Shown here piece by piece: positions 10,341 to 63,957 of a stretch of DNA of 64,000 bases. How positions within the stretch are numbered: position 1 is the stretch's first letter; every line of letters starts with the position of its first letter. The translations under genes were made by a program, and so were the position numbers. The notes below the pieces were generated by a model, which worked only from the letters and a program-made list of their open reading frames with translations, did not search any database and had not been told where the DNA came from. This DNA comes from Candidatus Acidiferrales bacterium (GTDB lineage Bacteria; Pseudomonadota; Gammaproteobacteria; UBA5335), in assembly GCA_035573755.1 (NCBI GenBank), contig DATLZY010000005.1, positions 33,190-97,189 on the forward strand, read 5' to 3'.

Positions 10341-10404
10341 CGGCGGAGCCGCAGGGGACGGCCCGTTGATCCATGTCATGGCGTAACTCCGGTCTGGTAG
10401 GGAT

Positions 10405-10430
10405 GATGATCACAGACCATCGTGATCATC
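10405..10430 (+). promoter_or_regulatory. perfect 9-bp inverted repeat (gatgatcac-N8-gtgatcatc) 24 nt upstream of the orphan pmoC start
   Basis: Read directly from the sequence. Lies between the fabH stop and the AGGAG RBS of the orphan pmoC. Candidate operator or 5'-UTR hairpin. Confidence 0.35.
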
Positions 10431-10453
10431 CGTCCACTCACAGGAGCCGCGCC

Positions 10454-11272
10454 ATGAACGCCGTGACCAAACCCCAGACACTACCCGTCGCGCCGCAGAC
10501 GCTCGTGCAGCGCCTGCTCGGCGCGCTGGGCCTGCTGCAGGACGAGTCCCGTCCGCCGCGCATGCCTTGGACGGCCGCGGTGGTGGGCGTTGCGGCAGCG
10601 GCCTTGGTCTTCGGCCTCTACCGCTGGTACCAGCAGGTCTTTTCCTTTTCCGTCGGGCTCGATTACTTCGAGCAGGATTTCCAGACCTATTGGATGAACC
10701 TGCTGTATGCCCAAGGCATCCTCATCACCTTGATTGGTCTGGTGGGCGTGCCTTTGCTGTGGTTCACGCGGCCCGCGCAGATCGTGATGTCGCCCCAGCG
10801 CGAGTTGTCGATCTATTACGCCATCCTCGCCTTCATGGCCGTGGGGAGCGTGATCCTCGTGGCGATTCTCGGCGTCTATGTGGAGGCCGATGCGGCCTGG
10901 CATCAAGTGACCATCCGCGACACCGACTTCACGCCAACCCACATCGGGCTGTTCTATTTCGCCATTCCCTTGGGGGCGGTCGGGGCCATCCTGGGCTTCA
11001 TCCTGATCCATACCCGCATGCCCTATTTCAGCAACCGGGTGTCGATTCCCCTGGCGCTGGTGGTCTGTGCGCCGGTCCTGATCATGCCCAATCTGGGGCT
11101 GAACGAGTGGGGCCATACTTTCTTTTACGCCGAGGAACTGTTTGCTGCGCCGATCCACTGGGGCTTCGTGGTGCTGGGCTGGGGGCTGTTCGGCATCGGC
11201 GGCTTCATGGTGCAGATCCTGCAGCGCATCCGCGAGTTGACGACGCTGGAACCGAAGCCGATCGAAGGCTGA
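10454..11272 (+). CDS. pmoC: orphan copper membrane monooxygenase subunit C paralogue (PmoC/AmoC family)
   Basis: Multi-TM protein carrying EADAAWHQVTIRDTDFTPTH and NEWGHTFFYAEELFAAPIH. These hold the D-x3-H...H and N-x3-H-x13-H ligand patterns of PmoC. AGGAG RBS before the ATG at 10454. No pmoA or pmoB is adjacent. Confidence 0.9.
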   Translation: MNAVTKPQTLPVAPQTLVQRLLGALGLLQDESRPPRMPWTAAVVGVAAAALVFGLYRWYQQVFSFSVGLDYFEQDFQTYWMNLLYAQGILITLIGLVGVPLLWFTRPAQIVMSPQRELSIYYAILAFMAVGSVILVAILGVYVEADAAWHQVTIRDTDFTPTHIGLFYFAIPLGAVGAILGFILIHTRMPYFSNRVSIPLALVVCAPVLIMPNLGLNEWGHTFFYAEELFAAPIHWGFVVLGWGLFGIGGFMVQILQRIRELTTLEPKPIEG

Positions 11273-42901: not shown

Positions 42902-42912
42902 CGCTTGGCCTC

Positions 42913-44328
42913 TCAGTAGCGGTAGTGATCGGGCTTGTAGGGGCCGTCCTTCGGAACGCCGATATAGGCGGCCTGCTGATCGGTAAGTTCAGTGAGCTTG
43001 GCGCCCAGTTTCTTGAGCTGCAGGCGGGCAACCTTTTCATCCAGGTGCTTGGGCAGCGTATGCACGCCGATGGGATAGTGGTGGGCGCGGGTGAACAGTT
43101 CGATCTGGGCGATGGTCTGGTTGGCAAATGACGAGGACATCACATAGGAAGGGTGTCCTGTTCCGCAGCCCAGGTTTACCAAGCGACCTCGGGCGAGCAG
43201 GATGATGCGCTTGCCATCGGGGAAGATCACATGATCGACCTGCGGCTTGATCTCTTCCCACTGGTATTTTTCCAGGCTCGCCACGTCGATTTCGTTGTCG
43301 AAATGACCGATGTTGCAGACGATGGCGTTGTTCTTCATCCGCGCCATGTGTGCGTGGGTGATGACGTGGTAGTTGCCGGTGGCGGTGACGAAGATGTCGG
43401 CCTTGTCGGCGGCATCGTCCATGGTCACGACCCGATAGCCTTCCATCGCCGCCTGCAGCGCGCAGATGGGGTCGATCTCGGTGACCCACACCTGTGCCGA
43501 CAACGCGCGCAGGGCCTGAGCACTGCCCTTGCCGACGTCGCCGTAGCCGCAGACCACGGCGATCTTGCCCGCGATCATCACGTCGGTGGCACGCTTGATA
43601 CCGTCGACCAAGGATTCGCGGCAGCCGTACAGGTTGTCGAACTTGGACTTGGTGACCGAGTCGTTGACGTTGATGGCTGGGAACTTGAGTTCGCCACGCT
43701 CGTGCATCTGGTAGAGGCGGTGCACGCCGGTCGTGGTCTCTTCGGTCACGCCCTTGATGTGAGCCAGACGCGTGGAATACCACTTCGGATCGACCGCCAG
43801 GTGTGCACGGATGGCGGCAAAGAGCACACGCTCCTCTTCGCTGGTGGGATGATTCAGTACCGCCAGATCGTTCTCGGCGCGGCTGCCCAGATGCAGCAAC
43901 AGGGTGGCGTCCCCGCCGTCGTCCAGGATCATGTTGGAATGGCCGCCATCGGGCCATTCGAAGATGCGGTGGGTATAGGCCCAATATTCTTCGAGGCTTT
44001 CGCCCTTGTAGGCAAATACCGGCGTGCCGCTGGCCGCGATGGCCGCGGCCGCATGGTCCTGGGTGGAGAAAATGTTGCAAGAGGCCCAACGCACTTCCGC
44101 GCCCAAGGCCTGCAGCGTTTCGATCAGCACCGCCGTCTGGATGGTCATGTGCAAGCTGCCGGAAATGCGTGCGCCGCGCAGCGGCTGGCTTGCGGCATAT
44201 TCTTCACGGATCGCCATCAGACCGGGCATTTCGGTTTCGGCGATGAGGATCTCTTTACGGCCCCAGTCTGCAAGACCGAGATCGGCGACGACATAATCGG
44301 ATTGGGAGGCTTCAGCCAAATGATTCAT
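42913..44328 (-). CDS. ahcY: S-adenosyl-L-homocysteine hydrolase
   Basis: [34 protein letters not shown] and the NAD site [15 protein letters not shown]. Start at MNHLAE with a GGAG RBS. The ORF-track extension to 44733 is not supported. Confidence 0.93.
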
Positions 44329-44404
44329 GGGGAGCTCCATGCATAGGCTGGCGCGCGGGGAGGGCGATGTGCTCGCCGTCATCCTCGATCCCGCCAGCGG
44401 GGTT

Positions 44405-44490
44405 GGATGTCGGAGAGCGCCGTTGAATCGCTTCCGAGCCTGGGATCGGACCTGCGGGCCGATCTTGCAGCGCTCCTCGGAATGCCCGGC
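44405..44490 (-). promoter_or_regulatory. SAH riboswitch in the ahcY-metF leader
   Basis: Minus strand reads UUCCGAGGAGCGCUGCAAGAUCGGCCCGCAGGUCCGAUCCCAGGCUCGGAAGCGAUUCAACGGCGCUCUCCG. It contains the conserved CGAGGAGCGCUGC...CAGGCUCGG...AACGGCGCUC blocks. P1 is CCGAG/CUCGG, P2 is the GAUCGG/CCGAUC hairpin, and AGCGC/GCGCU forms the pseudoknot. Lies about 80 nt upstream of the ahcY ATG. Confidence 0.85.
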
Positions 44491-44519
44491 AGTATAGCTC
44501 AGCGATGGCGGGCTGCGAA
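44491..44519 (-). promoter_or_regulatory. candidate sigma70 promoter for the riboswitch-ahcY-metF transcript
   Basis: Minus strand TTCGCA-N17-TATACT. The -10 lies just upstream of the riboswitch 5' end and the -35 lies inside the 3' end of the antiporter gene. Confidence 0.35.
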
Positions 44520-45563
44520 GCTGACCAATAGGGTGACGATGGTCAAGGGCACGACAAAGCTCAACATGATGTTGCTGTAGGCCGTCAAGGCATCGTGCTG
44601 CTGTGCCATCAGCAGAAGATAGATGGTGTACGCGGCATAGTAGGCCAGAAAGAGAATACCTTCCCAGCGGGCGATCTGCCGGCCAGTAAGGAGAATGGGA
44701 AGGCAGGCAAAGGCGACCGCCAGCATCACCCACAGATCGAAAGCGCGGGCTGCTTCGGGCACCGTCAAGCCGCCCGGTGCGGCCACGCCAGCTGCGCCGA
44801 GCACGGCCAGAAGGTTGAAAATATTGCTTCCAATCACATTGCCCACGGCAATGTCGCGCTGACCACGCAGGGCGGCGATGAGCGAAGTGGCAATTTCCGG
44901 CATGGAGGTGCCGATCGCCACGAGGGTGAGGCCAATGACGAGATCGCTCACACCGATCAACTTGGCGAATTCAACCGAAGCGCCTACCAGCCAGTCGGCA
45001 CCCAGCACCAATAGACCAAGACCGCCGAAGATCAGAAGCGTCTGGATGCTCCAGTGGCGATCCCACGTGCTGCTGGGGATTTCGACAATGAAATCCGATG
45101 CAGCGTCCTTGGAAGCCCGGCGCGCTTGCGTGACCAGGAAGGCCGTATAAGTGAGGGCCCCGGTAAACAGCAACGCCGATTCGATTCGTCCGACATATCC
45201 ATCGAGCGCCATTGCCACCACGATCAGCGATGCGCCGATCAGGATGGGAATTTCCTGTTGGATGATCTGCTCATGCACCAAGAGCGGGGCGATTACCGCT
45301 GATAACCCCAGGATCAAGAGCACATTGGCAATGTTGCTTCCGACCACGTTGCCGATGGCGAGGTTCGCCGAACCGGAGACCGCGGCGCCGATCGAGACTG
45401 CCATTTCGGGTGCGCTGGTGCCGAATGCGACGACGGTAAGACCGACGACCAGTGGCGTAATTCCCCATGACACGGCGAGGCGCGCGGCGCCACGCACCAA
45501 CATCTCGGCGCCAGCGACCAAGGTCGCCAGGCCGAGCACGAAGAATAAAGCCTGGGTCAGCAT
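44499..45563 (-). CDS. Ca2+/Na+ antiporter (CaCA family, YrbG-like)
   Basis: Two alpha-repeats, [10 protein letters not shown] and [10 protein letters not shown]. About 10 TM, 354 aa. Confidence 0.85.
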
Positions 45564-45566
45564 GGT

Positions 45567-46730
45567 TCAGGCAGTCCAGGCGTTCCGCAGGACCTCCGCT
45601 TTGTCGGTTCGCTCCCAGGTGAAGTCCGGCTCTTCGCGGCCAAAATGGCCGTAGGATGCGGTGCGCTGGAAAATCGGTCGGCGCAGATTGAGCATCTGGA
45701 TCAGTCCACGCGGGCGCAAATCGAAGTGCTCGCGCACCAGCGCGACCAGCCGATCTTCAGGGAGCGTGCCCGTGCCGAAGGTTTCGATGCTGATGGAGGT
45801 GGGTTCTGCAACGCCGATGGCATAGGACACCTGAACTTCGCAGCGACGCGCAAGGCCTGCGGCCACGATGTTCTTCGCCACATAGCGCGCGGCATAAGCA
45901 GCAGAGCGGTCGACTTTTGTGGGGTCTTTGCCGGAGAAGGCGCCACCGCCGTGGCGCGCCATGCCGCCGTAGGTGTCGACGATGATCTTGCGGCCGGTGA
46001 GGCCGCAGTCGCCGACTGGCCCCCCGATCTCAAAGGCCCCGGTGGGGTTGATGAAATACTTGATGTTGCCGTCCTGCCAATGCGCGGGCAGAACGGGCTT
46101 GATGATCTCTTCCATCACAGCTTCGACGAGCATGCCGTGCTCAATGCCGGGCGCGTGTTGGGTCGAGAGCACTACGGCGTCGATGCCCACGGGCCGGCCG
46201 GCGTCGTAGCGTACCGTGACCTGAGATTTGGCGTCGGGGCGCAGCCAGGGCAAGGTGCCGTTCTTGCGCACCTCGGCCTGACGTTGCACCAGCCGGTGGG
46301 AGAGGGTGATCGGCAGCGGCATCAGGACGTCCGTTTCGTCGGTGGCAAAACCGAACATCAGCCCTTGGTCGCCGGCACCTTGATCGAGATCCAGGCCCCG
46401 ACCTTCATCCACGCCTTGGGCAATGTCGGGGGATTGACGTCCGATTTCGGTCAACACTGCGCAAGTGTCGGGGCTGAAACCCATGGCATCGGTATAGCCG
46501 ATTTCGCGGATGACCTCACGCGCGACGCGGTCGAACTCCACTTGGGCGTTGGTCGTGATTTCACCTGCCAGCATGACCAGGTTGTTCTTGACCAGCGTCT
46601 CGCAGGCGACGCGGGCCGTGGGGTCCTGGGCCAGGATGGCGTCGAGAATGGCATCGGAGATCTGGTCGCAGACCTTGTCCGGGTGCCCTTCGGAAACCGA
46701 TTCGGAGGTGAACAAACGGGTTTGAGCCAT
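45567..46730 (-). CDS. metK: S-adenosylmethionine synthase
   Basis: [36 protein letters not shown] and [16 protein letters not shown] motifs. Confidence 0.95.
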
Positions 46731-47011
46731 GGCGAGAGCCCCTTGATGGAGAGGTTGAAGGCGAGTGGTCAGATCAGCGTGGGCGCAAGCCTATCCGATG
46801 GCCGGCACGGTGCCAAGGTTGACACAACACTTGTCATGTAGGGGCGGCAATGCGCGCCGGGAAAGCCGCGACCTTCACGCCGTTGCTGGGGGCAGGCGGA
46901 GCAAATCGGTTGCTGCGCTGGGCACTGGCGGGATTCGCGGTTGTGCCCCGTGCTCCATGGTGACGACAAGTGTCGCTCCGGTCGATGGCACGCCCTTGAC
47001 GCAAATCAATT

Positions 47012-47030
47012 GCAAGAGATTCTCATTTGT
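47012..47030. promoter_or_regulatory. Fur-box-like 19-mer upstream of the OMP/FMN-bind/ApbE module
   Basis: The reverse complement acaAATGAGAATCtcttgc matches about 12 of 19 positions of GATAATGATAATCATTATC by hand alignment, 9/10 in the core AATGA(T/g)AATC. Overlaps a possible TTGCAA-N17-AACAAT promoter. Confidence 0.3.
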
Positions 47031-47066
47031 ATAACAATTAGCAAAAATTGGGGTAGGAAGGTCAAG

Positions 47067-47978
47067 ATGAAATCAGGCAAAAAGATTCGGACCAGGATGC
47101 GCCGCGCAGCCGGCGGGATGTTGAACACAGTGATCGTCTTGGCGGGCTACGCCTTACCCGCAGGCGCTGATGAAAACCTTTTTGGCTATGTGACGGGCGT
47201 CGATACCCTGCCCAAAGGGGCGAGCGAGGTCTATCTGTGGGCGACCGACCGCCGCGACAAGGGCCAAGGCCATTACGCCGCTCAGGATTACCGGATCGAG
47301 TTCGAACGCGGGCTGACTGACCGGCTCACCGGCTCGCTGTACCTCAACTGGCGTCATCACGACATCAAGGGAGCAGCGGATGTCGACGAGAGCGGGAAAC
47401 CGGAATATCCCGATGTCGATCGGTTCGGCTTCCAGGGCGCGCAGGCGTCGATCAAATACAACTTGCTGGACGTCTACACCAATCCCGTCGGTGTGGCGCT
47501 CTATTTCGAGCCGGGCTATTCCGAAATCTTCAAGATCACAGGCCAGGAGCAACAGGAATTGTCCTTGGAGACCAAGCTGATCGTCCAGAAGAATTTCCTT
47601 GAGGATCAGCTGGTTTGGGCGACCAACCTGACACCGGAGTTTGAGGTGCGCAAGTTTGACGGCGAGGAGACCTGGGAAACCGAGCTGGCGCTTGAACTCA
47701 CGTCTGCCGTGTCCTACCGAATCGCAGCCAACTGGTTCGGTGGACTCGAGACACGCTATCACTCCGAATACCCGGACTGGCCGGACAGCGATTTGCGTGA
47801 ACACTATGCGATTTTCGCTGGCCCCACCGTCCACTATGGCGCCCAGCGCTGGTGGTGGACCCTGACCTATCTGCCGCAGCTCACGGGGCGACCCGTGGAT
47901 GAAGCCCGTGACGAAGATCTGCATTTGCATGAACATGAGAAGCGCGAAGTCCGCATGAAACTTGGCTACAACTTCTGA
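47067..47978 (+). CDS. putative outer-membrane beta-barrel protein
   Basis: Signal-like N-terminus, alternating amphipathic strands, Tyr/Trp girdles, and a C-terminal KLGYNF ending in Phe. GGTAGGAAGG RBS. Confidence 0.65.
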   Translation: MKSGKKIRTRMRRAAGGMLNTVIVLAGYALPAGADENLFGYVTGVDTLPKGASEVYLWATDRRDKGQGHYAAQDYRIEFERGLTDRLTGSLYLNWRHHDIKGAADVDESGKPEYPDVDRFGFQGAQASIKYNLLDVYTNPVGVALYFEPGYSEIFKITGQEQQELSLETKLIVQKNFLEDQLVWATNLTPEFEVRKFDGEETWETELALELTSAVSYRIAANWFGGLETRYHSEYPDWPDSDLREHYAIFAGPTVHYGAQRWWWTLTYLPQLTGRPVDEARDEDLHLHEHEKREVRMKLGYNF

Positions 47979-47996
47979 GTACGGGGCGATTCGGCG

Positions 47997-48524
47997 ATGA
48001 ACGAGCGTTCTGCTTTCCTGCTGTCCCTCACGGCGCTGGCTGTGTCGCCGGCCTGCTATGCGGTGCAATACCTTTCGGTGGAACAGGCGCAGGCACTGAT
48101 GTTTCCGAACGCCGTGCTGACCCCCTTGCCCATGACCCTTACGGCCGAGCAGAAGAAGACCATCGAAGCGCGCACCGGGACCATGGTTCGCCAGAGCGAA
48201 CTCAAGCTCTGGCGGGCGGCTACCGGTGGTTATTTCCTGGTCGATCAGGTGCTCGGCAAGCATGAGTTCATCACCTATGCCGTGGCGTTGGACGACAGTG
48301 GAGCCGTGCGGCAGATTGAGATCCTGGATTACCGTGAAACACACGGCGACGAGGTCCGTCGCCCAGGCTGGCGCAGCCAGTTTGCCGGCAAGACCAGCGC
48401 CGATACGCTCCGGGTCAACAAGGATATCCAGAACATCTCGGGCGCCACTTTGTCCTGCGTCCACATCACCGACGGCGTCCGTCGTCTGCTGGCCACCTAT
48501 GATGTCGCTATCCGTCCGCGCTGA
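47997..48524 (+). CDS. secreted FMN-binding domain protein (ApbE substrate-type)
   Basis: Signal peptide (LLSLTALAVSPACYA). Near the C-terminus, DIQNISGATLS matches the flavinylation motif D-x-x-(S/T)-G-A-(S/T). Confidence 0.8.
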   Translation: MNERSAFLLSLTALAVSPACYAVQYLSVEQAQALMFPNAVLTPLPMTLTAEQKKTIEARTGTMVRQSELKLWRAATGGYFLVDQVLGKHEFITYAVALDDSGAVRQIEILDYRETHGDEVRRPGWRSQFAGKTSADTLRVNKDIQNISGATLSCVHITDGVRRLLATYDVAIRPR

Positions 48525-54432: not shown

Positions 54433-54657
54433 TCTCACCGGCTGGAAGTTGAGCGGGCTTCGTTGTACCGTTAGCGCTCTCCGGCTGCCGCAGGGTCGTG
54501 GCAGCCTGCTCGATGCCCCAAGGAAGGCGGCGCATGCAGCGCCGCAATCCAGTGCGAGGGAAGTCGATGGGGCGTGGTGACGATGTCGCCGGCCGCCGTG
54601 CAGACGCAGGCATGGAGCACATGGAGTCGGCAGGATCGTCCGCACAGGAGTATACAA

Positions 54658-55839
54658 ATGGCTGATGCAGTTATCGTTTCTACTGCCCGCACCGGGATCG
54701 GCAAGGCATTTAAGGGTTCCTTGAACCTGACCCATGGCGCCGAAATGGGCGGCCATGTCATCAAGCATGCCGTCGAGCGCGCCGGCATCGATCCGGCCGA
54801 AGTCGAAGAAATCATCATGGGCTGCGGTCTGCCTGAAGGCGCGACCGGCAACAACATCGCCCGTCTTGCCGGCATCCGCGGCGGCATCCCGATCACCTCG
54901 ACCGGCGCCACCATTGCCCGGTTCTGTGGCTCCGGCCTCTCTGCCGTGGCTCACGCGGCGCAGCGCTGCATCGTCGACAAGGTACCGGTCGCCGTCGGCG
55001 GCGGGCTGGAGTCGATCAGCCTGGTGCAGAACAACATGAACATGAAGCATGCGATGGACAAGGGGCTGCTCAAGATGAAGCCCACCATCATGATGCCCAT
55101 GATTCCTACCGCCGAGAACATTGCCAAACGCTTCAACGTCACCCGCGAGGAAGCCGACCAGCTCGCCCTGCTGAGCCAGCAGCGCACCGCCGAAGCCCAG
55201 CGCAGTGGCAAGCTAGCCGAGGAAATCGTGCCGATCACGGTGACCATGGAAGTCACTGACAAGGAAACCGGTAAGACCGATAAGGTCGAGGTGACCCTGA
55301 GTCAGGACGAAGGCAACCGCCCGGACACCACGCTCGAAAAACTCGCCTCGCTGAAACCGGTCTCCGGCCCCACTGGCACGGTCACGGCCGGCAACGCCAG
55401 TCAGCTCTCCGACGGCGCTGCCGCAGTCGTCATCATGAACAGCGAATACGCCGAGAAAAAGGGCGTCAAGCCGCTGGGCATCTTCCGCGGTTTTGCCACC
55501 GCCGGCTGCGAACCCGACATCATGGGCATCGGCCCGGTCTTCGCCATCCCACGCCTGCTTGAGCGCCATGGCCTCAAGATGGACGACATCGGCCTGTGGG
55601 AACTCAACGAAGCCTTCGGCGTGCAGGCCATGTACTGCATCAAGGAACTGGGCATCCCCATGGAACTGTGCAACGTCAACGGCGGGGCCATCGCCATCGG
55701 CCACCCCTACGGCATGTCCGGCGCCCGCATGGTCGGCGCGGCTCTGCTCGAGGGCAAGCGCCGCGGCGTGAAGTACGTCGTGGTGTCGATGTGCATCGCC
55801 CAAGGTATGGGCGCTGCCGGCCTGTTCGAAGTGGTGTGA
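54658..55839 (+). CDS. acetyl-CoA C-acyltransferase (thiolase)
   Basis: [21 protein letters not shown], active-site Cys in [10 protein letters not shown], and C-terminal [28 protein letters not shown]. Confidence 0.92.
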
Positions 55840-55862
55840 GGCTGACCGCGAGCAGTCTGTCC

Positions 55863-55895
55863 GGCCCGGAGCCTCGTCGCTCCGGGCCTTTTTTG
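55863..55895 (+). terminator. intrinsic terminator after the thiolase gene
   Basis: 10-bp stem ggcccggagc/gctccgggcc with a 6-nt loop, followed by TTTTTT. Confidence 0.85.
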
Positions 55896-55909
55896 CGTGA
55901 TCCGGTTAT

Positions 55910-55938
55910 TTGGGATCAAGGCGGCCGCGTGTTATTAT
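55910..55938 (+). promoter_or_regulatory. candidate sigma70 promoter for etfBA
   Basis: TTGGGA-N17-TATTAT, about 100 nt upstream of the etfB ATG. Confidence 0.4.
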
Positions 55939-56036
55939 CGTCCGCTTTGATTGGGTCCTGTATGCTGGGCCGGTGAGCGGTATCTACGGTGCCGGCGCCG
56001 TTAATTCCTAATGGATGACTTGGAGCGATTACGGTC

Positions 56037-56783
56037 ATGAAGATTCTGGTGGGTGTCAAGCGGGTCGTTGACTACAACGTCCGCGTTCAGGTCAAGCCGG
56101 ACGGGTCCGGCGTGGCCCTCGACGGCGTCAAGATGAGCGTCAACCCTTTCGACGAAATCGCCGTTGAAGAAGCGTTGCGGCTCAAGGAAGCGGGTAAGGC
56201 CACGGAAGTTGTCGTCGTATCCATCGGCACCTCTGCCGCTCAGGAGCAGTTGCGCACGGCGCTTGCGATGGGCGCCGATCGCGCCATTCTGGTGGAAGCT
56301 GCGGAAGCCCCCCAACCCCTGACCGTGGCCCGCATCTTTGCCAAGCTGGTGGAGAAGGAAGGCGCAGGACTGGTGATGCTCGGCAAGCAGGCCATCGACG
56401 ATGACGCCGGCCAGACGCCCCAGATGCTGGCAGCGCTGCTGGGTTGTGCACAGGCATCTTATGCTTCCAAGATCGAGATCAATGGCAACAGCGCCAAGGT
56501 GACCCAGGAAGTCGATGCCGGTCTGCAGACCATCGAGGTAGACCTGCCTGCCGTAATCAGCGCCGACCTGCGCTTGAACGAGCCGCGCTACGTCAAGTTG
56601 CCCGACATCATGAAGGCCAAGAAAAAACCTCTCGACACCGTTGCTCTCGCTGATTTGGGCGTCGAGCCCGCTCCGGCGCTCAAGATCGTCAAGACCGAGG
56701 CCCCTGCGGCGCGTAGCGGTGGCCGCAAGGTCGGCAGCGCCGAGGAACTGGTCAAGGAACTGAAGAACAAGGGGCTGCTGTAA
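56037..56783 (+). CDS. etfB: electron transfer flavoprotein beta subunit
   Basis: [26 protein letters not shown]...[16 protein letters not shown]. Confidence 0.95.
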
Positions 56784-57730
56784 TGAGCAAGGTATTGATT
56801 ATTGGCGAACAGACCGGTGGCATCCTAGGGCAGGCCGTGGGCCGCGCCGTGGCTTGTGCCAAGGAATTGAATCCGACTGAGGTGACGGTGGCACTGTTCG
56901 GTGCCGGTGATCTTGGCGGCGCAGCTCAGGCTGCGGCGGCGCTGGACGGCGTGACCCGCGTGGTCACCGTCGACAACCCAGCCAATGCCCATCCACTGGC
57001 CGCTCTGGTTGCACCGCAGGTGGTGGCCCTGGCCCAGCAGGGTGGCTATAGTCACATCCTGGCCGGCAACACCAGCCTGGGCAAGGACACGTTGCCGCGC
57101 GTCGCCGCGTTGCTCGGTGTACCGCAGGTCACCGATATCATGCAGGCGCTGGGTGCGCGCAGCTTCAAGCGGCCGACCTATGCCGGCAACGCCATCGTGA
57201 CCGTCGAGGTGGAGGGCGATGGTGTGATTTGCGGGACGGTACGCGGTGCATCTTACCCGTCTGTCGGCACGGGTGGCTCGGCGGCTATCGAAGCGGTGAG
57301 CCTGGATGTGGCGCTGCCTAGCCACACCCGTTTCGTGTCGCAGGAAACCAGCAAGAGCGATCGCCCCGATCTGCAGAGCGCGCCCAAGGTTGTCTCGGGC
57401 GGTCGTGGCGTCGGCAGCGCGGAGAATTTCAAGCTGATCTTCAGCTTAGCCGACAAAATCGGCGCTGGCGTCGGTGCATCGCGCGCCGCGGTGGATGCCG
57501 GTTTCGTGCCCAACGAGATGCAGGTCGGCCAGACCGGCAAGATCATCGCGCCCGAGCTTTATATCGCCGTCGGGATCTCCGGTGCCATTCAGCATCTGGC
57601 GGGCATCAAGGACGCCGGCACCATCGTCGCCATCAACAAGGACGAAGAGGCGCCTATCTTCGAGGTAGCCGATCTGGGTCTGGTGGGTGATCTGTTCCAG
57701 GTTCTGCCGGAATTGGAAAAGCTGATCTGA
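56783..57730 (+). CDS. etfA: electron transfer flavoprotein alpha subunit
   Basis: C-terminal FAD block PELYIAVGISGAIQHLAGIKDAGTIVAINKDEEAPIF. TAATG overlap with etfB. Confidence 0.95.
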   Translation: MSKVLIIGEQTGGILGQAVGRAVACAKELNPTEVTVALFGAGDLGGAAQAAAALDGVTRVVTVDNPANAHPLAALVAPQVVALAQQGGYSHILAGNTSLGKDTLPRVAALLGVPQVTDIMQALGARSFKRPTYAGNAIVTVEVEGDGVICGTVRGASYPSVGTGGSAAIEAVSLDVALPSHTRFVSQETSKSDRPDLQSAPKVVSGGRGVGSAENFKLIFSLADKIGAGVGASRAAVDAGFVPNEMQVGQTGKIIAPELYIAVGISGAIQHLAGIKDAGTIVAINKDEEAPIFEVADLGLVGDLFQVLPELEKLI

Positions 57731-57770
57731 ACCGACCGTATCGGGCGATTCCGGCGCGGTTTGACTATAA

Positions 57771-57799
57771 AAGAGGGGGCCCATGCCCCCTCTTTTTTG
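57771..57799 (+). terminator. intrinsic terminator after etfA
   Basis: 10-bp stem aagagggggc/gccccctctt with loop ccat, running into a T tract. Confidence 0.85.
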
Positions 57800-57937
57800 G
57801 GGCAAGCGTACGGCGCGTTGGCTTTGGATTGGTCGATCCGGCTGAATCATGCTTGCGGCTCGCCCTGCGCGCGGTTTATGGTCATCGCCCGAGCACCGGC
57901 GCTCGGCCGTTTTCCCCTATCACAAGGAGTGCGTTTC

Positions 57938-58336
57938 ATGTCAGCGGAACTGTTTTGGCTCACCTGGACCGTAATCCTGACCGCCTTTTTATTCCTGCCT
58001 TACGTCCTGAACCGGATTGGGATCCGCGGCCTGTTCGGTGCCATGGGCAATCCCCGCCCCGATGATCTGCCTGAGTCGGATTGGGCCCAGCGGGCGATGC
58101 GCGCCCATGCCAATGCGGTGGAAAACCTTGTCGTCTTTGCCCCGCTGGTGCTCATGGTGGAACTCGTCGGTGCCAATTCGGGATTGACGGCATTTGGTGC
58201 GGCCCTCTATTTCTGGGCCAGGCTGGTGCACTACGTGGTCTATACCTTGGGCATCCCGATTGTGCGGACCTTGAGTTTCTTCACGGGGCTGGCTGGAGAA
58301 GTGCTGCTCATGATCGCTCTCATCGGGGCGATGTGA
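57938..58336 (+). CDS. MAPEG-family membrane protein
   Basis: 132 aa, 4 TM, with RAHANAVENLVVFAPLVL typical of MAPEG. AAGGAG RBS. Confidence 0.8.
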   Translation: MSAELFWLTWTVILTAFLFLPYVLNRIGIRGLFGAMGNPRPDDLPESDWAQRAMRAHANAVENLVVFAPLVLMVELVGANSGLTAFGAALYFWARLVHYVVYTLGIPIVRTLSFFTGLAGEVLLMIALIGAM

Positions 58337-58343
58337 CGTCGGC

Positions 58344-59342
58344 ATGATGCGCATGCGCGCCTTGATCGCCAGCCGTCCGGGCGGCCCGGAGGTGCTGGAG
58401 TGGGTCGAAGTCGATCTACCAGAAGTGGGCAGCGAAGAGGTCAGGGTTCGCGTGCGTGCGGCGGGCGTGAATCGCGCCGATCTGCTGCAGCGCAGCGGAC
58501 TCTATCCGCCGCCGCTCGGTTGGGATCCACGCCGGATTGGTCTGGAATATGCTGGCGTGGTCGAGCAGGTTGGCGAGCGCTGCGTTCTACGCCGTCCGGG
58601 CGATCGGGTGATGGGCATTGTGGCAGCCGGTGCCTGCGCCGAATTCGTAACTGTTCCCGAACGCGAAACCCTTCTGATTCCCAACGCGCTGACCGACACT
58701 GAAGCGGCCGCGATTCCCGAGGCCTTCCTGACGGCTTTCCGTGCCTTGTGGGACGAAGGCGCGCTGGCGCTCGGGCAGGCGGTGCTGATCCGGATTGCGA
58801 CCTCGACGGTGGGCATGGCGGCGATCCAACTGGCCCATGTGGCTGGCCATCCGCTCGCCGGAACCGGGCGCGATTCATCGCGACTGGCAGTGCTGCGGGA
58901 TCTGGGGCTGAAACATGTTCTGATCGAAGGGCCAGACATGGTGCGCCGCGCTCACGCCGTCTTGAATGGCCCGGTCCAGGTCGTGCTCGATCTGTGGGGT
59001 GGCGGTCGACTGGCAGAAAATCTGGCGCTGCTCGCCGACGAAGGCCGTCTAGTCGTGGTCGGTCTGCTGGGCGGCACCCGCGACACGCTCGATTTGGGTA
59101 CGCTGCTGATGCGGCGGCAGAGCATCCGCACGCTGACCATGCGCAGCCAGCCCATCGAGCGGCGCATTGCCCTGGTGCGCCGATTCGAGCGTGAGGTGTT
59201 GCCGCTATTGGCCACCGGGCGCCTGCGCATGCCGATCGCGCAGATCTATCCCATGGCCGATGCGGCTCAGGCACATCGCGATATGGTAACCGGTCATCGT
59301 CCGGGCAAGCTTGTCCTGTCACTGTCCTGCGGCGCAAGCTGA
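58344..59342 (+). CDS. NAD(P)H:quinone oxidoreductase (zinc-independent MDR, PIG3/Qor type)
   Basis: GGPEVLEWVEVDLPEVGSEEVRVRVRAAGVNRADLLQRSGLYPPP. 332 aa. Confidence 0.85.
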   Translation: MMRMRALIASRPGGPEVLEWVEVDLPEVGSEEVRVRVRAAGVNRADLLQRSGLYPPPLGWDPRRIGLEYAGVVEQVGERCVLRRPGDRVMGIVAAGACAEFVTVPERETLLIPNALTDTEAAAIPEAFLTAFRALWDEGALALGQAVLIRIATSTVGMAAIQLAHVAGHPLAGTGRDSSRLAVLRDLGLKHVLIEGPDMVRRAHAVLNGPVQVVLDLWGGGRLAENLALLADEGRLVVVGLLGGTRDTLDLGTLLMRRQSIRTLTMRSQPIERRIALVRRFEREVLPLLATGRLRMPIAQIYPMADAAQAHRDMVTGHRPGKLVLSLSCGAS

Positions 59343-59620: not shown

Positions 59621-59874
59621 ATGTCAGGGAAGACCGGATTCTGGGCCATCGCCCAGCGCGAGCCTCAAAAGACCGCTGCCGGTCGGGCGATATGTTTTCA
59701 GGAACTGGACGGGCGGGTAAATCGCCTCTCCAACGGCTTGCGTTCACTCGAGCTTCAGTATTGCGATGGCATTGCCATGCTGATGCACAACGATCCAAGC
59801 TGAATCGAGGCGTTTGGCTGCGCATCAAATCGGCCTCTATCTGACGCTCATCAACTACCATCTGACCAGTCCCG
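59621..59874 (+). pseudogene. remnant of an acyl-CoA synthetase (AMP-dependent ligase) gene: in-frame stop, frameshift, then cut by an IS end
   Basis: GAAGGAG RBS and ATG at 59621 give ...ELDGRVNRLSNGLRSLELQYCDGIAMLMHNDPS then TGA. IEAF continues in frame. AAHQIGLYLTLINYHLTSP, a typical ligase N-terminal region, continues in another frame. It stops exactly where TGACCTGCCCCC begins at 59875. Confidence 0.75.
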
Positions 59875-60680
59875 TGACCTGCCCCCTTCAGCCGTACCAG
59901 TGATTCGGTTGGGGGGCTGGGGTTGAAGGTTAATGGAATTGGCTGGGTACGGTGTGACGAGCGGCATCGCCGTTGTGTCGGCGTAGCTGCTCTGCGTATT
60001 GGGCCGGCGGTATCCGGCCTATGCTGCTGTGGGGCCGGACCTCGTTGTAGTCGCTGCGCCAGGCGGCGATCTCTGTCCGGGCCTGTCTGAGGTTCTGGAA
60101 CCAGTGCTCATTGCGGCACTCGTCGCGGAACTTGCCGTTGAAGCTCTCGATGTAGCCGTTCTGCATGGGCCGGCCTGGCTCGATGAGGATGTGGCGGATG
60201 TGGTGCTCCTGCGTCCAGGCGATGAAAGCACGGCCGGTGAACTCCGGGCCGTTGTCGGTTCTGACAGCGGCCGGGTAGTCCCTGAATCGCGCTGCCTGGT
60301 CCAGCAGCCGGGTCACGTACAGGCCGCTGATGCCGCAGTCCACAGCAATGTCCACGCACTCATGGCTGAGGTCATCGGCCACGGTCGGGCACTTGATGCG
60401 CCGTCCGTTGGCCAGGCTGTCGCTGACGAAGTCCATGCTCCACACCTCGTTGATGCGTTGGGCGATGTTCAAGGGCGTGCGCTCCATCACCGGGCGCTTG
60501 GCCTGCTTGCGCTTGCGCACCGCCAGATGGGCCGCGCTGTAGAGCCGGTACACCCGCTTGTGATTGACACCGGGAAAGTCGTTGCGCAGCAGGTCGTGCA
60601 CGCGCCGGTAGCCGAAGCGCCAGCGCACATGGGCGATCCCTCCTGGGAGGAGCGTGAGCGAAAGATCTGATGATCCATGC
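59875..60680 (-). mobile_element. 5'-truncated IS3-family insertion sequence (right end plus most of orfB; orfA and left end missing)
   Basis: The plus-strand end TGACCTGCCCCC at 59875 corresponds to ...GGGGGCAGGTCA on the IS strand, the TG...CA termini typical of IS3-family IRs. It lies 55 nt beyond the orfB stop. The inner boundary is approximate. Confidence 0.8.
59930..60628 (-). pseudogene. IS3-family transposase OrfB (integrase core), N-terminally truncated
   Basis: RFGYRRVHDLLR...VNHKRVYRLY...WSMDFVSD...TDNGPEFTGRAF...SFNGKFRDECRNEHWF...RPHSSIG carries the DDE/rve-domain blocks. The frame hits a TAG about 15 codons upstream of the GTG, and no orfA is present. Confidence 0.85.
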
Positions 60681-60708: not shown

Positions 60709-60737
60709 TTGAACGGTCGTTCAACTGGGAGTATAAG
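60709..60737 (+). promoter_or_regulatory. candidate sigma70 promoter for the pmoCAB-like operon
   Basis: TTGAAC-N17-TATAAG, about 150 nt upstream of the pmoC ATG and just inside the IS-remnant boundary region. Confidence 0.4.
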
Positions 60738-60888
60738 TTGATCCAGGGTCGAGTCGCTATGCCGGATCGGCTCGGAAAAGTCAAGCCGCTGCGGACAAGT
60801 TTTTGCTCCGTAGGGTGGACGGTTCTTCATCCAACGAGATACCCCCTTCTTTGAGAAAGGGGGATCTGCAACAAGAGGAGACACAGTC

Positions 60889-61686
60889 ATGAGTACCGTA
60901 ATGGATCGCAATATCGCGGGCGAGCCCGCAACAGGGACGGAGGCGCCGCGCCCGCCATGGGGCTTAGCGGTTACCGTGACGGCGATCGCGATCGCATTCG
61001 TCGCCCTCGTGAAATGGTATCAACACAGTTTTTCCTGGTCAGTGGGGCTCGATTCATTTTCCGAGGAGTTTCAGATCTACTGGATGCGGATCTTCTATGC
61101 CCAGATCATTCTTCTGCCGGTCCTGGGTTGCATAGGGGCCGTCTGGCTCTGGCTGACTCGCGATCGAGACATCATGAACCTGCCGGCCCGGGATGAACTG
61201 GGGCGGTTTTATGCCATGTTCAGCATTCTCGTCGTAGCGGCGATCGCTCTGATTGCAGCCCTGGGACTGTTGACGGAAGCCGATGCGGCCTGGCATCAAG
61301 TGGTGATTCGGGACACCGACTTCACCCCAACCCACATTTTCCTATTCTATCTGGGGGTGCCTGCCGGTCTCGGCGGCTTGGCGATGGCTTGGATCTGGGT
61401 GCACACGCGACTGCCTTATTTTGCCAATCGTGTGTCCATGCCGCTGTCGCTGGCCATCATCGGCTTCATGTGCGCGGGTCCGGTGGTTGCCTTCAACGAA
61501 TGGGCACATACCTTCTTCTACGCCGAGGAACTGTTCGGTGCGCCGGTGCATTGGTTCTTCGTGCTCGCAGGATTTTTCCTCGTCTTTCTGATCGGTTTCG
61601 TGATTCAGTGCTTGCAACGCATGCATGAACTGAGCCGGGTATACAGCCTGGAGGAGGTGGAGAAGGAGATGGGTTTGGGCCGCTGA
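60889..61686 (+). CDS. pmoC: copper membrane monooxygenase subunit C (PmoC/AmoC family), operonic copy
   Basis: 265 aa, 6 TM. EADAAWHQVVIRDTDFTPTH and NEWAHTFFYAEELFGAPVH ligand blocks. AAGAGGAG RBS. Confidence 0.92.
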   Translation: MSTVMDRNIAGEPATGTEAPRPPWGLAVTVTAIAIAFVALVKWYQHSFSWSVGLDSFSEEFQIYWMRIFYAQIILLPVLGCIGAVWLWLTRDRDIMNLPARDELGRFYAMFSILVVAAIALIAALGLLTEADAAWHQVVIRDTDFTPTHIFLFYLGVPAGLGGLAMAWIWVHTRLPYFANRVSMPLSLAIIGFMCAGPVVAFNEWAHTFFYAEELFGAPVHWFFVLAGFFLVFLIGFVIQCLQRMHELSRVYSLEEVEKEMGLGR

Positions 61687-61695
61687 CGGACAACA

Positions 61696-61733
61696 CCGGA
61701 GCGAATGGTCGAGGGAGCGCCCATTCGCTCCGG
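61696..61733 (+). promoter_or_regulatory. perfect 13-bp intercistronic hairpin between pmoC and pmoA
   Basis: ccggagcgaatgg-N12-ccattcgctccgg with no following T tract. Starts 10 nt after the pmoC stop. Confidence 0.5.
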
Positions 61734-61831
61734 ATCGTCACGATATCGCATCTCCTATTGCGAGGTAGGCTGCTTTTGTCAGCACCAGCCCAAGCTCAAA
61801 CCGAAACCAATGGAAGGATGGAAGGGTTTTC

Positions 61832-62620
61832 ATGGCTATTCAAATCGACACCAGCAATCGTACCGACGCCGATCGAGCGCCGCGGGGAAAAGCGGTCATC
61901 AGCGTCAAGGATCAGATGCAGGCGTGGCGTAACGCCGATCTGTTTTTCTTTCCGCTTATCTCCATCTTGATCGGAGGCGCTGCAGTCTTTCTGTGCGCGC
62001 TGACCGTCGGGGATTGGAGTTACTGGATGGATTGGCGGGATCGGCGCTGGTGGCCTCTGTTGACGCCTCTGCTGTTGCTCGCCTTACCTGCCGTAGCCAC
62101 CTATGCGTTCTGGAAGTATTTCAAGTTGCCGGTTGCGGCAACAGGCTTGGCATTGGGATTCTGGCTTTCCCAGATCGTCAGCCGATATGTGAATTTTCAT
62201 GTATTCGCGGCATTTCCGATGAATTGGGTCATGCCGGAAGTCTGGATCGGTGCGGCCGTCGTTCTGGATGCCGTGCTGCTGATCACCCGCAGCTTCGCCC
62301 TGACCGGATTGGTTGGCGGCATGCTGTGGGGTCTTTTATTTTCGGCCATGAACTGGCCCGTGGTAGCACCCATGCACATGGCGGTTCAATTGGGTGACAA
62401 CGTGATGACTCTGGCCGACTACATGGGCTTCCAGTACATCCGCACGGCCATGCCCGAATATGTGCGCATCATCGAAGCGGGCACATTGCGTACGTTCGGG
62501 ACTCATGTCGCTCCGGTCAGTGCCTTCGTTTCGGGATTCTTTGCCATCTTGGTCTACTACGTCTTCGTATGGATCGGCTCCAAGGGTTCCCGGCCGTCCT
62601 GGCTGGTGAAGCTGGTATGA
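61832..62620 (+). CDS. pmoA: copper membrane monooxygenase subunit A (PmoA/AmoA family), divergent
   Basis: 262 aa. GDWSYWMDWRDRRWWPLLTP, NWPVVAPMHM, YIRTAMPEYVRIIEAGTLRTFG and VAPVSAF blocks parallel canonical PmoA/AmoA. The remainder is divergent. Confidence 0.9.
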   Translation: MAIQIDTSNRTDADRAPRGKAVISVKDQMQAWRNADLFFFPLISILIGGAAVFLCALTVGDWSYWMDWRDRRWWPLLTPLLLLALPAVATYAFWKYFKLPVAATGLALGFWLSQIVSRYVNFHVFAAFPMNWVMPEVWIGAAVVLDAVLLITRSFALTGLVGGMLWGLLFSAMNWPVVAPMHMAVQLGDNVMTLADYMGFQYIRTAMPEYVRIIEAGTLRTFGTHVAPVSAFVSGFFAILVYYVFVWIGSKGSRPSWLVKLV

Positions 62621-62640
62621 GAAAGACAGGAGTGACCGCG

Positions 62641-63957
62641 ATGGAAAGGCTGGATCGACGCGGATTGCGTAACGCTCTTCTCATGGTCCTGATGTGGGCT
62701 CTGTTGGTGCCGGTGACCTATGGGCATGGCGAAATTGCCCAGATGGCGGGCATTCGCATGCGAACCATTCACTGGTTCGATACCGAGATACAACCGACTC
62801 AGGTCAAGGTCAACGATATCGTCACGGTACGGGGCAAATTCATGGTTTCCGGACATTGGCCAGATTACGTGGCGAAGCCGGAGGAGTGGGTTTTTCTGAA
62901 CATCGGTGTTCCGGGACCCGTCTTCGTCCGCTTGGACACCACCATAAACGGCATGCCGCAGTATCAATCAACTGCGTTCAAACGGGGTGAATTCTACGAG
63001 TACGAAATCAAGCTCAAGGCTCGGGTGCCCGGTGAATGGCATGTGCACCCGCTGATCAACGTTTGGGAGGCGGGCCCTATTGCAGGGCCAGCGCGCTTTG
63101 TCCAGATCAGCGGAGACAAGGCAGATTTCGTTAATACGGTCACACTGATGGATGGCGAATTGGTGGACGTGGAGAACTATGGCCTGTCGTCCATGTGGTC
63201 GATCCACTTGCTGTGGGTGCTCGTAGGCCTGCTCTGGATCGGTTATTGGTTCCGGCGACTGCCGGTCATGATGTACCGCTATGTGATGGTCAAGGAACAT
63301 GGAGAACTCGAGGCTGAACGGCGACTCATCAGCATCCAGGACATTGCCGTCAGCGTAACTTTTGTAGTAGCGATTATCGGTGTGACCTTGGGGTTGATGG
63401 TGTGGTCCTTCGATCGCTGGTCGATCACAATCCCCTTACAAACCGGAAAAGTCGAAGCGCCGGTGATCCCGTTGCCTGAATCCCAACAACAGGTGGATGT
63501 CAAGGTCAACAGGGCCCAATTCGATCTGCCGTCGCGACGCCTGGACATGGCGCTCGAGGTGACCAACCGGTCGACCGAGCCGGTTCGCGTCGGAAAGTTC
63601 GTCACTGGTTATGCCCGTTTCATCAATCCGGCGGTACTGGAGGATATGAAGCATGACCGTTACGATCCAGTGGCTCCGACAGGGTTGAGCAGCGACGTCG
63701 AGTGGATCGAGGCGGGCCAGAGCCGCTTGATCAATGTGACATTGGCTGACGCTCTATGGGGCGAACAGCGGCTGACCGACATCGTAGCAGAGCCTGATCT
63801 GCGTTTCGCCGGATTGATGTTCTTCTACTCAGCCGATGGGCAACGTCATGTTCGTGAGATTGGCGCTCGTATGACACCCAATTTTTTGCCGGGTTATGTT
63901 CCGGTCAACCGGCACGGCGGGCATGTGACATTGGAAAATCGTGGGTCAATGGGCTGA
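62641..63957 (+). CDS. pmoB: copper membrane monooxygenase subunit B (PmoB/AmoB family)
   Basis: Signal peptide ends ...VPVTYG, followed by HGE, the N-terminal His of the CuB site. MRTIHWFD and the GEWHVHPLINV HxH motif are present. Two C-terminal-half TM helices. AGGAG RBS for the ATG at 62641. An alternative ATG at 62617 overlaps the pmoA stop. Confidence 0.9.
   Translation: MERLDRRGLRNALLMVLMWALLVPVTYGHGEIAQMAGIRMRTIHWFDTEIQPTQVKVNDIVTVRGKFMVSGHWPDYVAKPEEWVFLNIGVPGPVFVRLDTTINGMPQYQSTAFKRGEFYEYEIKLKARVPGEWHVHPLINVWEAGPIAGPARFVQISGDKADFVNTVTLMDGELVDVENYGLSSMWSIHLLWVLVGLLWIGYWFRRLPVMMYRYVMVKEHGELEAERRLISIQDIAVSVTFVVAIIGVTLGLMVWSFDRWSITIPLQTGKVEAPVIPLPESQQQVDVKVNRAQFDLPSRRLDMALEVTNRSTEPVRVGKFVTGYARFINPAVLEDMKHDRYDPVAPTGLSSDVEWIEAGQSRLINVTLADALWGEQRLTDIVAEPDLRFAGLMFFYSADGQRHVREIGARMTPNFLPGYVPVNRHGGHVTLENRGSMG

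Follow-up and report, generated by a model that had tools for sequence, protein, structure and literature searches.

Copper membrane monooxygenases (CuMMOs) form a family that governs the oxidation of methane, ammonia and short-chain alkanes, and among its least characterised branches are the enzymes of Macondimonas-type bacteria, which dominate oiled beach sands and tar and also occur in wastewater reactors. The HMO of Mycolicibacterium chubuense NBB4 was reportedly supported experimentally by Coleman et al. in 2011/2012, a source also cited in PMC6215863, as a C2–C4 alkane-oxidising CuMMO. A later study (PMC8941013) reports that Rhodococcus sp. ZPP oxidises propane by its pHMO, and cites Candidatus Macondimonas diazotrophica (Karthikeyan et al. 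2019) as encoding a pHMO; it also describes a Macondimonas-like population in a nitrifying enrichment, the abundance of which tracked two different pHMO genes, and its strong de-enrichment by alkyne activity-based sorting pointed to inactivity of these pHMOs under ammonia-oxidising conditions. In a preprint (bioRxiv 10.1101/2023.07.16.546273), phmCAB operons with extra phmC copies are described for UBA5335/Macondimonas, and the UBA5335 phmCAB is placed outside the known clades of short-chain-alkane degraders and far from methanotroph sequences. The same preprint lists butyryl-CoA dehydrogenase, the glyoxylate shunt and the methylcitrate cycle as present in metagenome-assembled genomes (MAGs) of UBA5335, and methanol dehydrogenase, the serine pathway and the ribulose monophosphate (RuMP) pathway as absent from them. 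Another CuMMO clade, from Porticoccaceae, lies outside all proteobacterial Pmo/Amo and has been linked to methylcycloalkanes, according to a second preprint (bioRxiv 10.1101/2022.11.07.515388). Here we analysed a 64,000-nt stretch of a UBA5335 assembly (GCA_035573755.1, contig DATLZY010000005.1; the whole stretch is referred to as the window), in which three genes at 60889–63957, named here xmoC, xmoA and xmoB, encode a CuMMO.

The xmoCAB operon of the window is a species-level member of the already described Macondimonas/UBA5335 type-1 pHMO clade, and its substrate is probably a non-methane hydrocarbon (probability about 0.65). An earlier interpretation made from the letters and open reading frames (ORFs) alone, the sequence-only reading, had proposed an intact and divergent CuMMO in a context that did not look like that of a methanotroph, and this description stood, the context being a core genome of neither methanotroph nor nitrifier type. 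Its suggestion of horizontal acquisition was weakened (see below), and the novelty that it implied was overrated, since the Macondimonas pHMO and the UBA5335 phmCAB are already in the literature, as seen in PMC8941013 and 10.1101/2023.07.16.546273. The operon opens no new category, both its clade and its likely role having been described. What the window adds is a clean, intact example with gene starts, ligands, a candidate operator, an intercistronic hairpin and an orphan xmoC, in which the adjacent acyl-CoA synthetase gene is a natural knockout; to this are added the clade placement, a reinterpretation of the insertion sequence (IS) and GC evidence, and a conserved ligase linkage.

Gene structure, metal ligands and family placement

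The genes of the operon are as follows:

60889..61686, + strand: xmoC1, 265 aa, PmoC/AmoC-family subunit (Pfam AmoC, 201 bits)
61832..62620, + strand: xmoA1, 262 aa, PmoA/AmoA-family subunit (Pfam AMO, 241.6 bits)
62641..63957, + strand: xmoB1, 438 aa from its probable start, with a signal peptide and a WHVH motif (Pfam Monooxygenase_B, 385.6 bits)

The three ORFs are contiguous, intact and on one strand in the order C-A-B, with a C-A spacer of 145 nt (61687–61831), as the sequence-only reading had described. All three subunits scored far above the Pfam gathering cut-offs (26.7 for PF04896, 27.5 for PF02461 and 22.7 for PF04744, in the order AmoC, AMO and Monooxygenase_B), which together with their adjacency placed them in the CuMMO superfamily. 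The extent first given to xmoB needed a correction: the gene is real, and its ORF opens at 62569 (462 aa), overlapping the 3' end of xmoA. Since an AGGAG sits 8 nt 5' of the ATG at 62641 and orthologous XmoB proteins align from residue 1 of the 438-aa form, this ATG is the probable start. The best chains in the Protein Data Bank (PDB) were 3rfr_C for XmoC (E 4e-49), 1yew_B for XmoA (E 2e-59) and 3rgb_A for XmoB (E 4.9e-91). These alignments to solved pMMO are all full-length, and at the level of sequence comparison they settle the predicted fold of XmoCAB (E 1e-49 to 5e-91).

Metal ligands were counted along the alignments to solved pMMO chains (1yew_C and 3rfr_C for XmoC; 3rgb_A for XmoB), with Methylococcus capsulatus pMMO as the reference. 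The CuC ligands D132, H136 and H149 of XmoC correspond to D156, H160 and H173 of PmoC, the CuD ligands N203, H207 and H221 to N227, H231 and H245, and the CuB ligands H53, H158 and H160 of XmoB (numbered on the 462-aa ORF) to H33, H137 and H139 of PmoB, so that all nine positions are kept. H53 comes immediately after a signal-peptide-like N-terminus (...LLVPVTYG/HGE). The motifs that had been picked out in the sequence-only reading, six CuC/CuD positions in PmoC and the signal peptide before HGE plus WHVH in PmoB, thus aligned with the solved chains, and none of the ligands was misaligned or lost, the outcome named there as refuting. XmoB retains H48 of the bis-His site that is particular to M. 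capsulatus, and has Met in place of PmoB His72. In XmoA, V52, L54, A56 and S63 stand at the positions of PmoA His38, His40, Met42 and Asp49, and PmoA Glu100 is replaced by Gln. Replacement of His38, mostly by Val, was found throughout the type-1 clade and the sister cluster described below, and the type-1 clade has Leu or another aliphatic residue at His40, Ala at Met42 and mostly Ser at Asp49. Every Pmo, Amo, Pxm and actinobacterial Hmo reference used has His38; His40 is kept in the Pmo, Amo and Pxm references and not in HmoA. These two histidines of PmoA were once proposed as copper ligands in one disputed model. Loss of His38 serves here purely as a marker of the type-1 clade and its sister cluster.

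Relatives were searched for with an XmoA scan of one genome per GTDB species, and nine loci were found. In eight of them, labelled 'Candidatus Macondimonas sp.', Gammaproteobacteria or Pseudomonadota, XmoA is 87–96% identical to that of the window; the ninth comes from a tar-biofilm MAG (79%). An XmoA tree was built by neighbour joining with 100 bootstraps from 88 sequences trimmed to 221 core columns: the window, the nine MAG loci, 70 database homologues, three plasmid-encoded HmoA (M. chubuense NBB4, M. dioxanotrophicus and Rhodococcus ZPP), one PxmA from Methylomagnum, and PDB-derived PmoA and AmoA. The reference set was small (two Pmo, two Amo, one Pxm and three Hmo), and the tree was made without sequences from Haliea, Cycloclasticus, Solimonas, Porticoccaceae B045, betaproteobacteria and Nocardioides CF8. 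Bootstrap support was 100/100 for a Macondimonas core clade (the window, L001–L008 and P0005; at least 94% identity over the 221-column core), for the wider type-1 clade, for the split of the type-1 clade plus an environmental gammaproteobacterial sister cluster from Pmo, Amo, Pxm and actinobacterial Hmo, and for the actinobacterial Hmo as a separate clade, which does not contain XmoA. MAGs labelled Pseudomonadales fell within the sister cluster. The core identity of XmoA is 42% with M. capsulatus PmoA, 40% with PxmA, 38–39% with actinobacterial HmoA and 38% with Nitrosomonas europaea AmoA. The divergence from Pmo and Amo, earlier a qualitative judgement, could in this way be quantified (38–42% core identity to the references of these two families), and the phylogeny that had been proposed as a check showed that XmoA nests in no Pmo or Amo clade.

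The ratio of non-synonymous to synonymous substitution rates (dN/dS) against four orthologues was 0.02–0.07 for the three genes (xmoC 0.04–0.06, xmoA 0.02–0.06) at dS of 0.2–2.1. These values point to strong purifying selection, and indicate that the operon encodes a functional enzyme. The operon looks mosaic, XmoA being closest to that of L001 and XmoB 97% identical to that of L002 (gene at 10810–12123). Against L002, dS was 0.23 for xmoB, 0.98 for xmoC and 0.74 for xmoA; the low value for xmoB suggests recombination among Macondimonas lineages, with xmoB as the putative recombinant within the clade.

A further CuMMO gene of the window had been overlooked in the sequence-only reading:

10373..11272, + strand: orphan xmoC2, ORF of 299 aa (272 aa in relatives; Pfam AmoC, 210.6 bits)

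It lies directly after plsX (8299–9375) and fabH (9372–10340), keeps all six CuC/CuD ligands in the PDB alignment and is host-like in composition (62% GC; 0.83 GC at third codon positions, GC3). XmoC2 shares 51% identity with XmoC1 and more, 56%, with the XmoC of a sister-cluster CAB operon. Orphan xmoC genes were found in housekeeping contexts in several relatives. In Ca. Macondimonas diazotrophica (GCA_002410185.1; L019/L020, 1797–9554) two orphan xmoC genes in divergent orientation have an AMP-binding acyl-CoA synthetase gene and acyl-CoA dehydrogenase genes on their flanks, so that the linkage between CuMMO subunits and acyl-CoA metabolism recurs there. The MAG of L001 (GCA_045864775.1) has a second CuMMO locus without xmoC, xmoA2B2 (L017, contig BTVR01000003.1, 4040–18143; also L018), the XmoA of which is 52% identical to that of the window, and XmoC2 may serve such an A2B2 pair elsewhere in the window genome. 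The xmoA2B2 genes are preceded by genes for a pyrroloquinoline quinone (PQQ) dehydrogenase, an alpha/beta hydrolase and a Baeyer-Villiger-type flavin monooxygenase (FMO), and followed by genes for a small unknown protein, a multicopper oxidase and an aldehyde dehydrogenase, a neighbourhood that suggests a sub-terminal or cyclic oxidation route.

Flanking genes, substrate and pathway

Upstream of the operon the following features were annotated, the first five by Pfam/NCBIfam matches and within a block shared with L001 and L002:

54574-55839, + strand: thiolase
56037-56783, + strand: etfB
56783-57730, + strand: etfA
57953-58336, + strand: MAPEG protein
58344-59342, + strand: PIG3-type quinone oxidoreductase (Zn-ADH/QOR)
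59622..59874, + strand: acyl-CoA synthetase 5' remnant (pseudogene), 253 nt, aligned with the intact L001, L002 and L003 genes
59875..60634, − strand: IS3-family remnant, 760 bp, with an ORF (59930–60628) for the C-terminal 232 aa of the transposase
60635-60670, + strand: acyl-CoA synthetase 3' remnant, about 36 nt, ending in ...WEERERKI and the stop

Pfam and NCBIfam matches bore out the neighbours named in the sequence-only reading (thiolase, etfBA, MAPEG, quinone oxidoreductase, dead acyl-CoA ligase and IS3 fragment). The region at 52.2–59.3 kb is collinear with L001 (isolate AMX-MBFR-76) and L002 (Ca. Macondimonas sp.) at 87–89% nucleotide identity, and the proteins encoded by the collinear genes (ugd, a panE-like gene, thiolase, etfBA, MAPEG and quinone oxidoreductase) are 83–98% identical. 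The host is a Macondimonas-like gammaproteobacterium of a distinct species-level lineage. The name AMX-MBFR-76 presumably refers to an anammox-type bioreactor; no source paper for it was found. A MAPEG gene and a dehydrogenase gene stand beside xmoCAB in L023/L024/L025 (11162–12485) as well as in the window (57953–59342).

An intact AMP-binding acyl-CoA synthetase gene (516 aa) lies directly upstream of xmoC in seven MAG loci (L001–L003 and L005–L008), its copies being 85–96% identical to each other and similar to FadD4/PRK12406 models. The window has the same arrangement on a Macondimonas-syntenic background, with the ligase present as a pseudogene and the downstream side of the operon lying beyond the window end. 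In the window the IS has taken the place of about 1.25 kb of the ligase gene, and three lesions mark the 5' remnant: a deletion of 12 nt, a nonsense change (TGG>TGA at 59802) and a frameshift of 2 nt. The IS3 sequence, the only copy in the window, matched NCBIfam transpos_IS3 (195.6 bits, cut-off 160; profile positions 149–368 of 369) and Pfam rve and rve_3. Its junctions, mapped against L002, showed that the element is incomplete: one end abuts codon ~85 of the ligase and the other end is missing, its place taken by the ligase 3' remnant. The idea of the IS3 remnant as a scar of recent acquisition of the operon was rejected, since relatives free of the IS have the operon in the corresponding position and the element breaks up a conserved ligase gene, while the intergenic region from the ligase stop to xmoC is fully retained. 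The IS3 is a secondary, fairly old insertion plus deletion in a conserved neighbour gene, and is not evidence of the arrival of the operon.

Base composition led to the same view. GC content is 56–58% in the operon genes, 63.7% on average over the window and 59–67% in the upstream neighbours; GC3 is 0.67–0.71 in the operon versus 0.72–0.82 in the neighbours (5–15 points lower). The sequence-only reading was right about the lower GC of the operon and took too high a background for it ('~68%'). The offset is not just an amino-acid effect, because xmoC2 encodes the same type of protein at the host-like values given above. The orthologous operons in L001, L002, L006 and L007 all have 58% GC, with flanks of 59–69%, and several related MAG species have the operon at this chromosomal locus too; any horizontal acquisition must therefore predate the clade or the divergence of these species. 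The proposal that low GC and the IS3 together signal acquisition is weakened accordingly.

The favoured reading draws its pathway context from the conserved acyl-CoA synthetase and from the thiolase and etfBA genes a few kb upstream in the closest relatives, although the 54574..59342 block is absent upstream of the ligase in L005–L008 and its functional link to the operon is conjectural. By homology to pMMO, XmoC, XmoA and XmoB would assemble as a membrane (CAB)3 complex, in which XmoB would be exported and cleaved before the His that, with the histidines of WHVH, is predicted to bind the periplasmic CuB copper. XmoC would supply the membrane-embedded CuC (Asp/His/His) and CuD (Asn/His/His) sites, where O2 might be activated with quinol-derived electrons and a C–H bond of a small hydrophobic substrate hydroxylated. 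The alcohol product could then pass through the acid and the acyl-CoA to beta-oxidation, and a palindromic operator of 16 bp would overlap the conserved promoter at which transcription probably starts. On this reading the most likely role is the oxidation of hydrocarbons of short or medium chain length. Assignment of the enzyme specifically to C2–C4 n-alkanes is tentative, at somewhat less than even odds, and the substrates may possibly be somewhat larger or cyclic alkanes. An AMP-binding gene also adjoins hmoCAB in M. chubuense NBB4 and Rhodococcus sp. ZPP. A hmoCAB plus acyl-CoA synthetase module shared with Actinobacteria by common descent was considered and rejected, as the ligases are 29–31% identical, a generic ANL-family similarity.

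Several points weigh against a non-methane hydrocarbon as the substrate. The closest experimentally characterised CuMMOs are 36–42% identical, no substrate has been measured for any member of the type-1 clade or the sister cluster, and the His38 and His40 of characterised PmoA references are Val and Leu in this clade. The conserved ligase resembles medium/long-chain FadD models and not short-chain ones; its parallel in Actinobacteria is generic because of the ~30% identity; and, being dead in the window genome, it implies that the operon is independent of that ligase. The thiolase/ETF neighbourhood is not conserved in L005–L008, L023 and L026–L029. Some close relatives come from nitrogen-removal bioreactors or are MAGs without an oil-derived label, and the Macondimonas-like reactor organism with two pHMO genes was not labelled by the activity probe, according to PMC8941013.

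Among the alternatives, the substrate could be an alkene (oxidised to an epoxide), a cycloalkane or a ketone instead of an n-alkane, with MAPEG and the adjacent dehydrogenase processing a reactive product. MAPEG and dehydrogenase genes adjoin type-1 operons in two arrangements (MAPEG-QOR-ligase-xmoCAB in the window, L001 and L002; xmoCAB-MAPEG-SDR in a marine lineage of 79% identity, SDR being a short-chain dehydrogenase), the literature ties related CuMMOs to ethylene (Haliea), methylcycloalkanes (Porticoccaceae B045) and acetone (a verrucomicrobial homologue), and the xmoA2B2 genes of a related MAG adjoin the Baeyer-Villiger-type FMO, alpha/beta hydrolase and PQQ dehydrogenase genes. However, the MAPEG proteins of the two arrangements are not orthologues (42% identity over 48 residues, E = 1e-4), MAPEG is absent beside the operon in L005–L008 and L026–L029, and no epoxide-handling genes (coenzyme M pathway, epoxide hydrolase) were seen near the operon, so that we regard this alternative as rather unlikely. 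MAPEG was also rejected as an ancestral operon partner, the proteins being non-orthologous and missing from other type-1 loci; the two arrangements may reflect convergence or coincidence. A broader proposal is speculative and has a low probability: the type-1 clade and the sister cluster would represent a deep CuMMO lineage lacking His38/His40, acting beyond C1–C4 alkanes and ammonia (for instance on alkenes, cyclic or medium-chain hydrocarbons, or ketones) and mixing and matching its subunits. If so, XmoC2 could serve a C-less xmoA2B2 elsewhere or swap into XmoA1B1, altering the substrate range, and such swapping would account for persistence in oil-free nitrogen-removal reactors.

That the operon is a decaying or silenced relic, left after the upstream IS3 event broke the pathway or its expression, is suggested by the multiply mutated ligase pseudogene next to it and by the IS remnant 255 bp upstream of xmoC. 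Yet the three ORFs are intact with no non-synonymous excess, the palindrome/promoter and the ribosome-binding site are retained downstream of the IS junction, and the ligase remnant gained three further lesions while xmoCAB stayed clean, all of which makes a relic very unlikely. It is even harder to maintain that XmoCAB serves a heterotroph of nitrogen-rich reactors as an ammonia monooxygenase or as an enzyme that co-oxidises ammonia. XmoB does exceed the NCBIfam AmoB_BACT cut-off (446.6 vs 336), the sole Pmo/Amo equivalog passed by any subunit, the isolate name of a MAG among the nearest relatives (AMX-MBFR-76) suggests an anammox-type reactor, and a nitrifying enrichment contains rpoB and pHMO genes of Macondimonas-like type (PMC8941013). 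XmoA and XmoC, however, are both under their Amo_BACT cut-offs (254 vs 290 and 219.5 vs 319), and the Amo_BACT names are also borne, in RefSeq annotation, by the A-B-C-ordered (pxm-type) operon of Methylomagnum, so that the AmoB_BACT match is uninformative on the substrate. The clade lies outside Amo with 100% bootstrap, hao was not found in the window, and activity-based sorting under ammonia-oxidising conditions left the enrichment organisms strongly de-enriched (PMC8941013). Least probable of all is a divergent pMMO of a cryptic methanotroph. Every pMMO metal ligand is kept and the best PDB matches are pMMO chains, but XmoA scored 204 bits against PmoA (168–173 against AmoA), below AmoA (278) and PxmA (302) against the same protein, at 42% identity, and all three subunits fell under the Pmo equivalog cut-offs (TIGR03078, 194.3 vs 280.6; TIGR03080, 225.5 vs 318.15; TIGR03079, 340.4 vs 394.9). 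In agreement with the sequence-only reading, methanol dehydrogenase, hao and C1-assimilation genes were not found among the ~50 ORFs scanned across the 64-kb window, and methanol dehydrogenase and C1 pathways are reported absent from UBA5335 MAGs in 10.1101/2023.07.16.546273.

Regulatory elements and remainder of the window

Three candidate elements were located in the non-coding parts of the operon region:

60709..60737, + strand: candidate promoter/operator, from a comparative alignment of 7 orthologous upstream regions
60842..60863, + strand: tentative 5' untranslated region (5'-UTR) hairpin, CCCCCTT...AAGGGGG, just 5' of the invariant AAGAGGAGAC ribosome-binding region
61696..61733, + strand: intercistronic hairpin in the C-A spacer, with a 13-bp perfect stem (61696–61708/61721–61733) and a 12-nt loop

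The first contains a perfect 16-bp palindrome, TTGAACGGTCGTTCAA (60709–60724), which overlaps a −35-like TTGAAC and is followed by a −10-like TATAAG (60732–60737) at a 17-nt spacing from the −35-like box. No second copy of the palindrome occurs in the window (chance would give 0.1 matches), and across the 7 upstream regions its half-sites and the TATA vary little or not at all, consistent with a putative operator and promoter; a strict consensus promoter/terminator scan made no call at the operon start. The 145-nt C-A spacer folds at −52.3 kcal/mol (z = −2.46). Three stem pairs of its hairpin are maintained by two-sided changes across 8 orthologous loci, and the loop holds a conserved GGAGCG; the hairpin is likely an mRNA processing or stability element. 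The 5'-UTR hairpin occurs at the same place with a different sequence in relatives, where the consensus fold is weak (−2.9 kcal/mol). No known RNA family was found by Rfam in or near the operon.

On the 3' side of xmoB, L001 and L002 have a convergent epimerase gene and a sugar transferase gene, which also follow xmoB in L006–L008; pmoD/copCD or dehydrogenase genes were not found 3' of xmoB in the relatives. The remainder of the window is ordinary core genome, with leuCD, fimV, truA, plsX-fabH, ftsYEX, rpiA, 6S RNA, pepP, gcvP, metF, ahcY with a SAH riboswitch, and metK. The 6S RNA (23659–23843, − strand; Rfam RF00013, 87.4 bits) adjoins a 5-formyltetrahydrofolate cyclo-ligase gene in the usual ssrS-ygfA arrangement. 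The SAH riboswitch (44408–44484, − strand; Rfam RF01057, 64.3 bits) lies upstream of ahcY in a metK-ahcY-metF cluster, a position that puts the true ahcY start downstream of the start of the 606-aa ORF at 44733. Beside these methyl-cycle genes, positions ~37000–48000 are lower in GC (54–62%) and encode a DedA/VTT protein, a sulfotransferase, a GT1-type glycosyltransferase and an ORF without a Pfam match (40989–41951); this region may be a small surface-modification islet.

Comparison with known systems

AmoCAB (N. europaea; PDB 9cl6) and PxmABC (plasmid of Methylomagnum ishizawai) belong to the same superfamily as XmoCAB and have the same ligands. They differ from it in sequence, XmoA being 37–38% identical to AmoA and 40% to PxmA, and the Pxm genes are ordered A-B-C; moreover, the PDB matches to AmoA, AmoB and AmoC all scored lower than those to pMMO. 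PmoCAB of M. capsulatus Bath (1yew, 3rgb, 7s4h) aligns over the full length and shares the CuB, CuC and CuD ligands, whereas its distance is apparent in the 42% identity over the XmoA core, the sub-equivalog scores, the Met at PmoB His72 and the absence of a C1 pathway context in the window. The actinobacterial HmoCAB (NBB4, ZPP and the M. dioxanotrophicus plasmid) resembles the window operon in its C-A-B order and, in NBB4 and ZPP, in a nearby AMP-binding gene. It is nevertheless a separate, plasmid-borne clade with identities of 31–34% (C), 36–40% (A) and 28–30% (B), ligases that are ~30% identical, and an HmoA that keeps His38.

Closer to the window operon is the environmental gammaproteobacterial cluster, whose MAGs bear the labels Nevskia, Pseudomonadales, Moraxellaceae and Macondimonas. 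It joins the type-1 clade at 100% bootstrap against all references, has the PmoA His38 replaced, and is likewise uncharacterised and associated with hydrocarbon-exposed sites. Judging by MAG names and published descriptions, it probably includes the Porticoccaceae B045 clade and the Solimonas 'Xmo of unknown function' (PMC6215863). Its XmoA proteins, however, are only 43–57% identical to that of the window, and its loci (L014, L017) usually have a small unknown protein and a multicopper oxidase downstream, which are absent at the type-1 locus. The match to the Macondimonas/UBA5335 phmCAB is of another order: XmoA identities of 87–96% in eight MAG loci, the ligase-xmoCAB order, an operon GC of ~58%, and extra orphan xmoC copies here too, matching the preprint. 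From the Macondimonas MAGs the window is set apart by flanks of 87–89% nucleotide identity, by the destruction of the ligase by IS3 and by an apparently recombinant xmoB.

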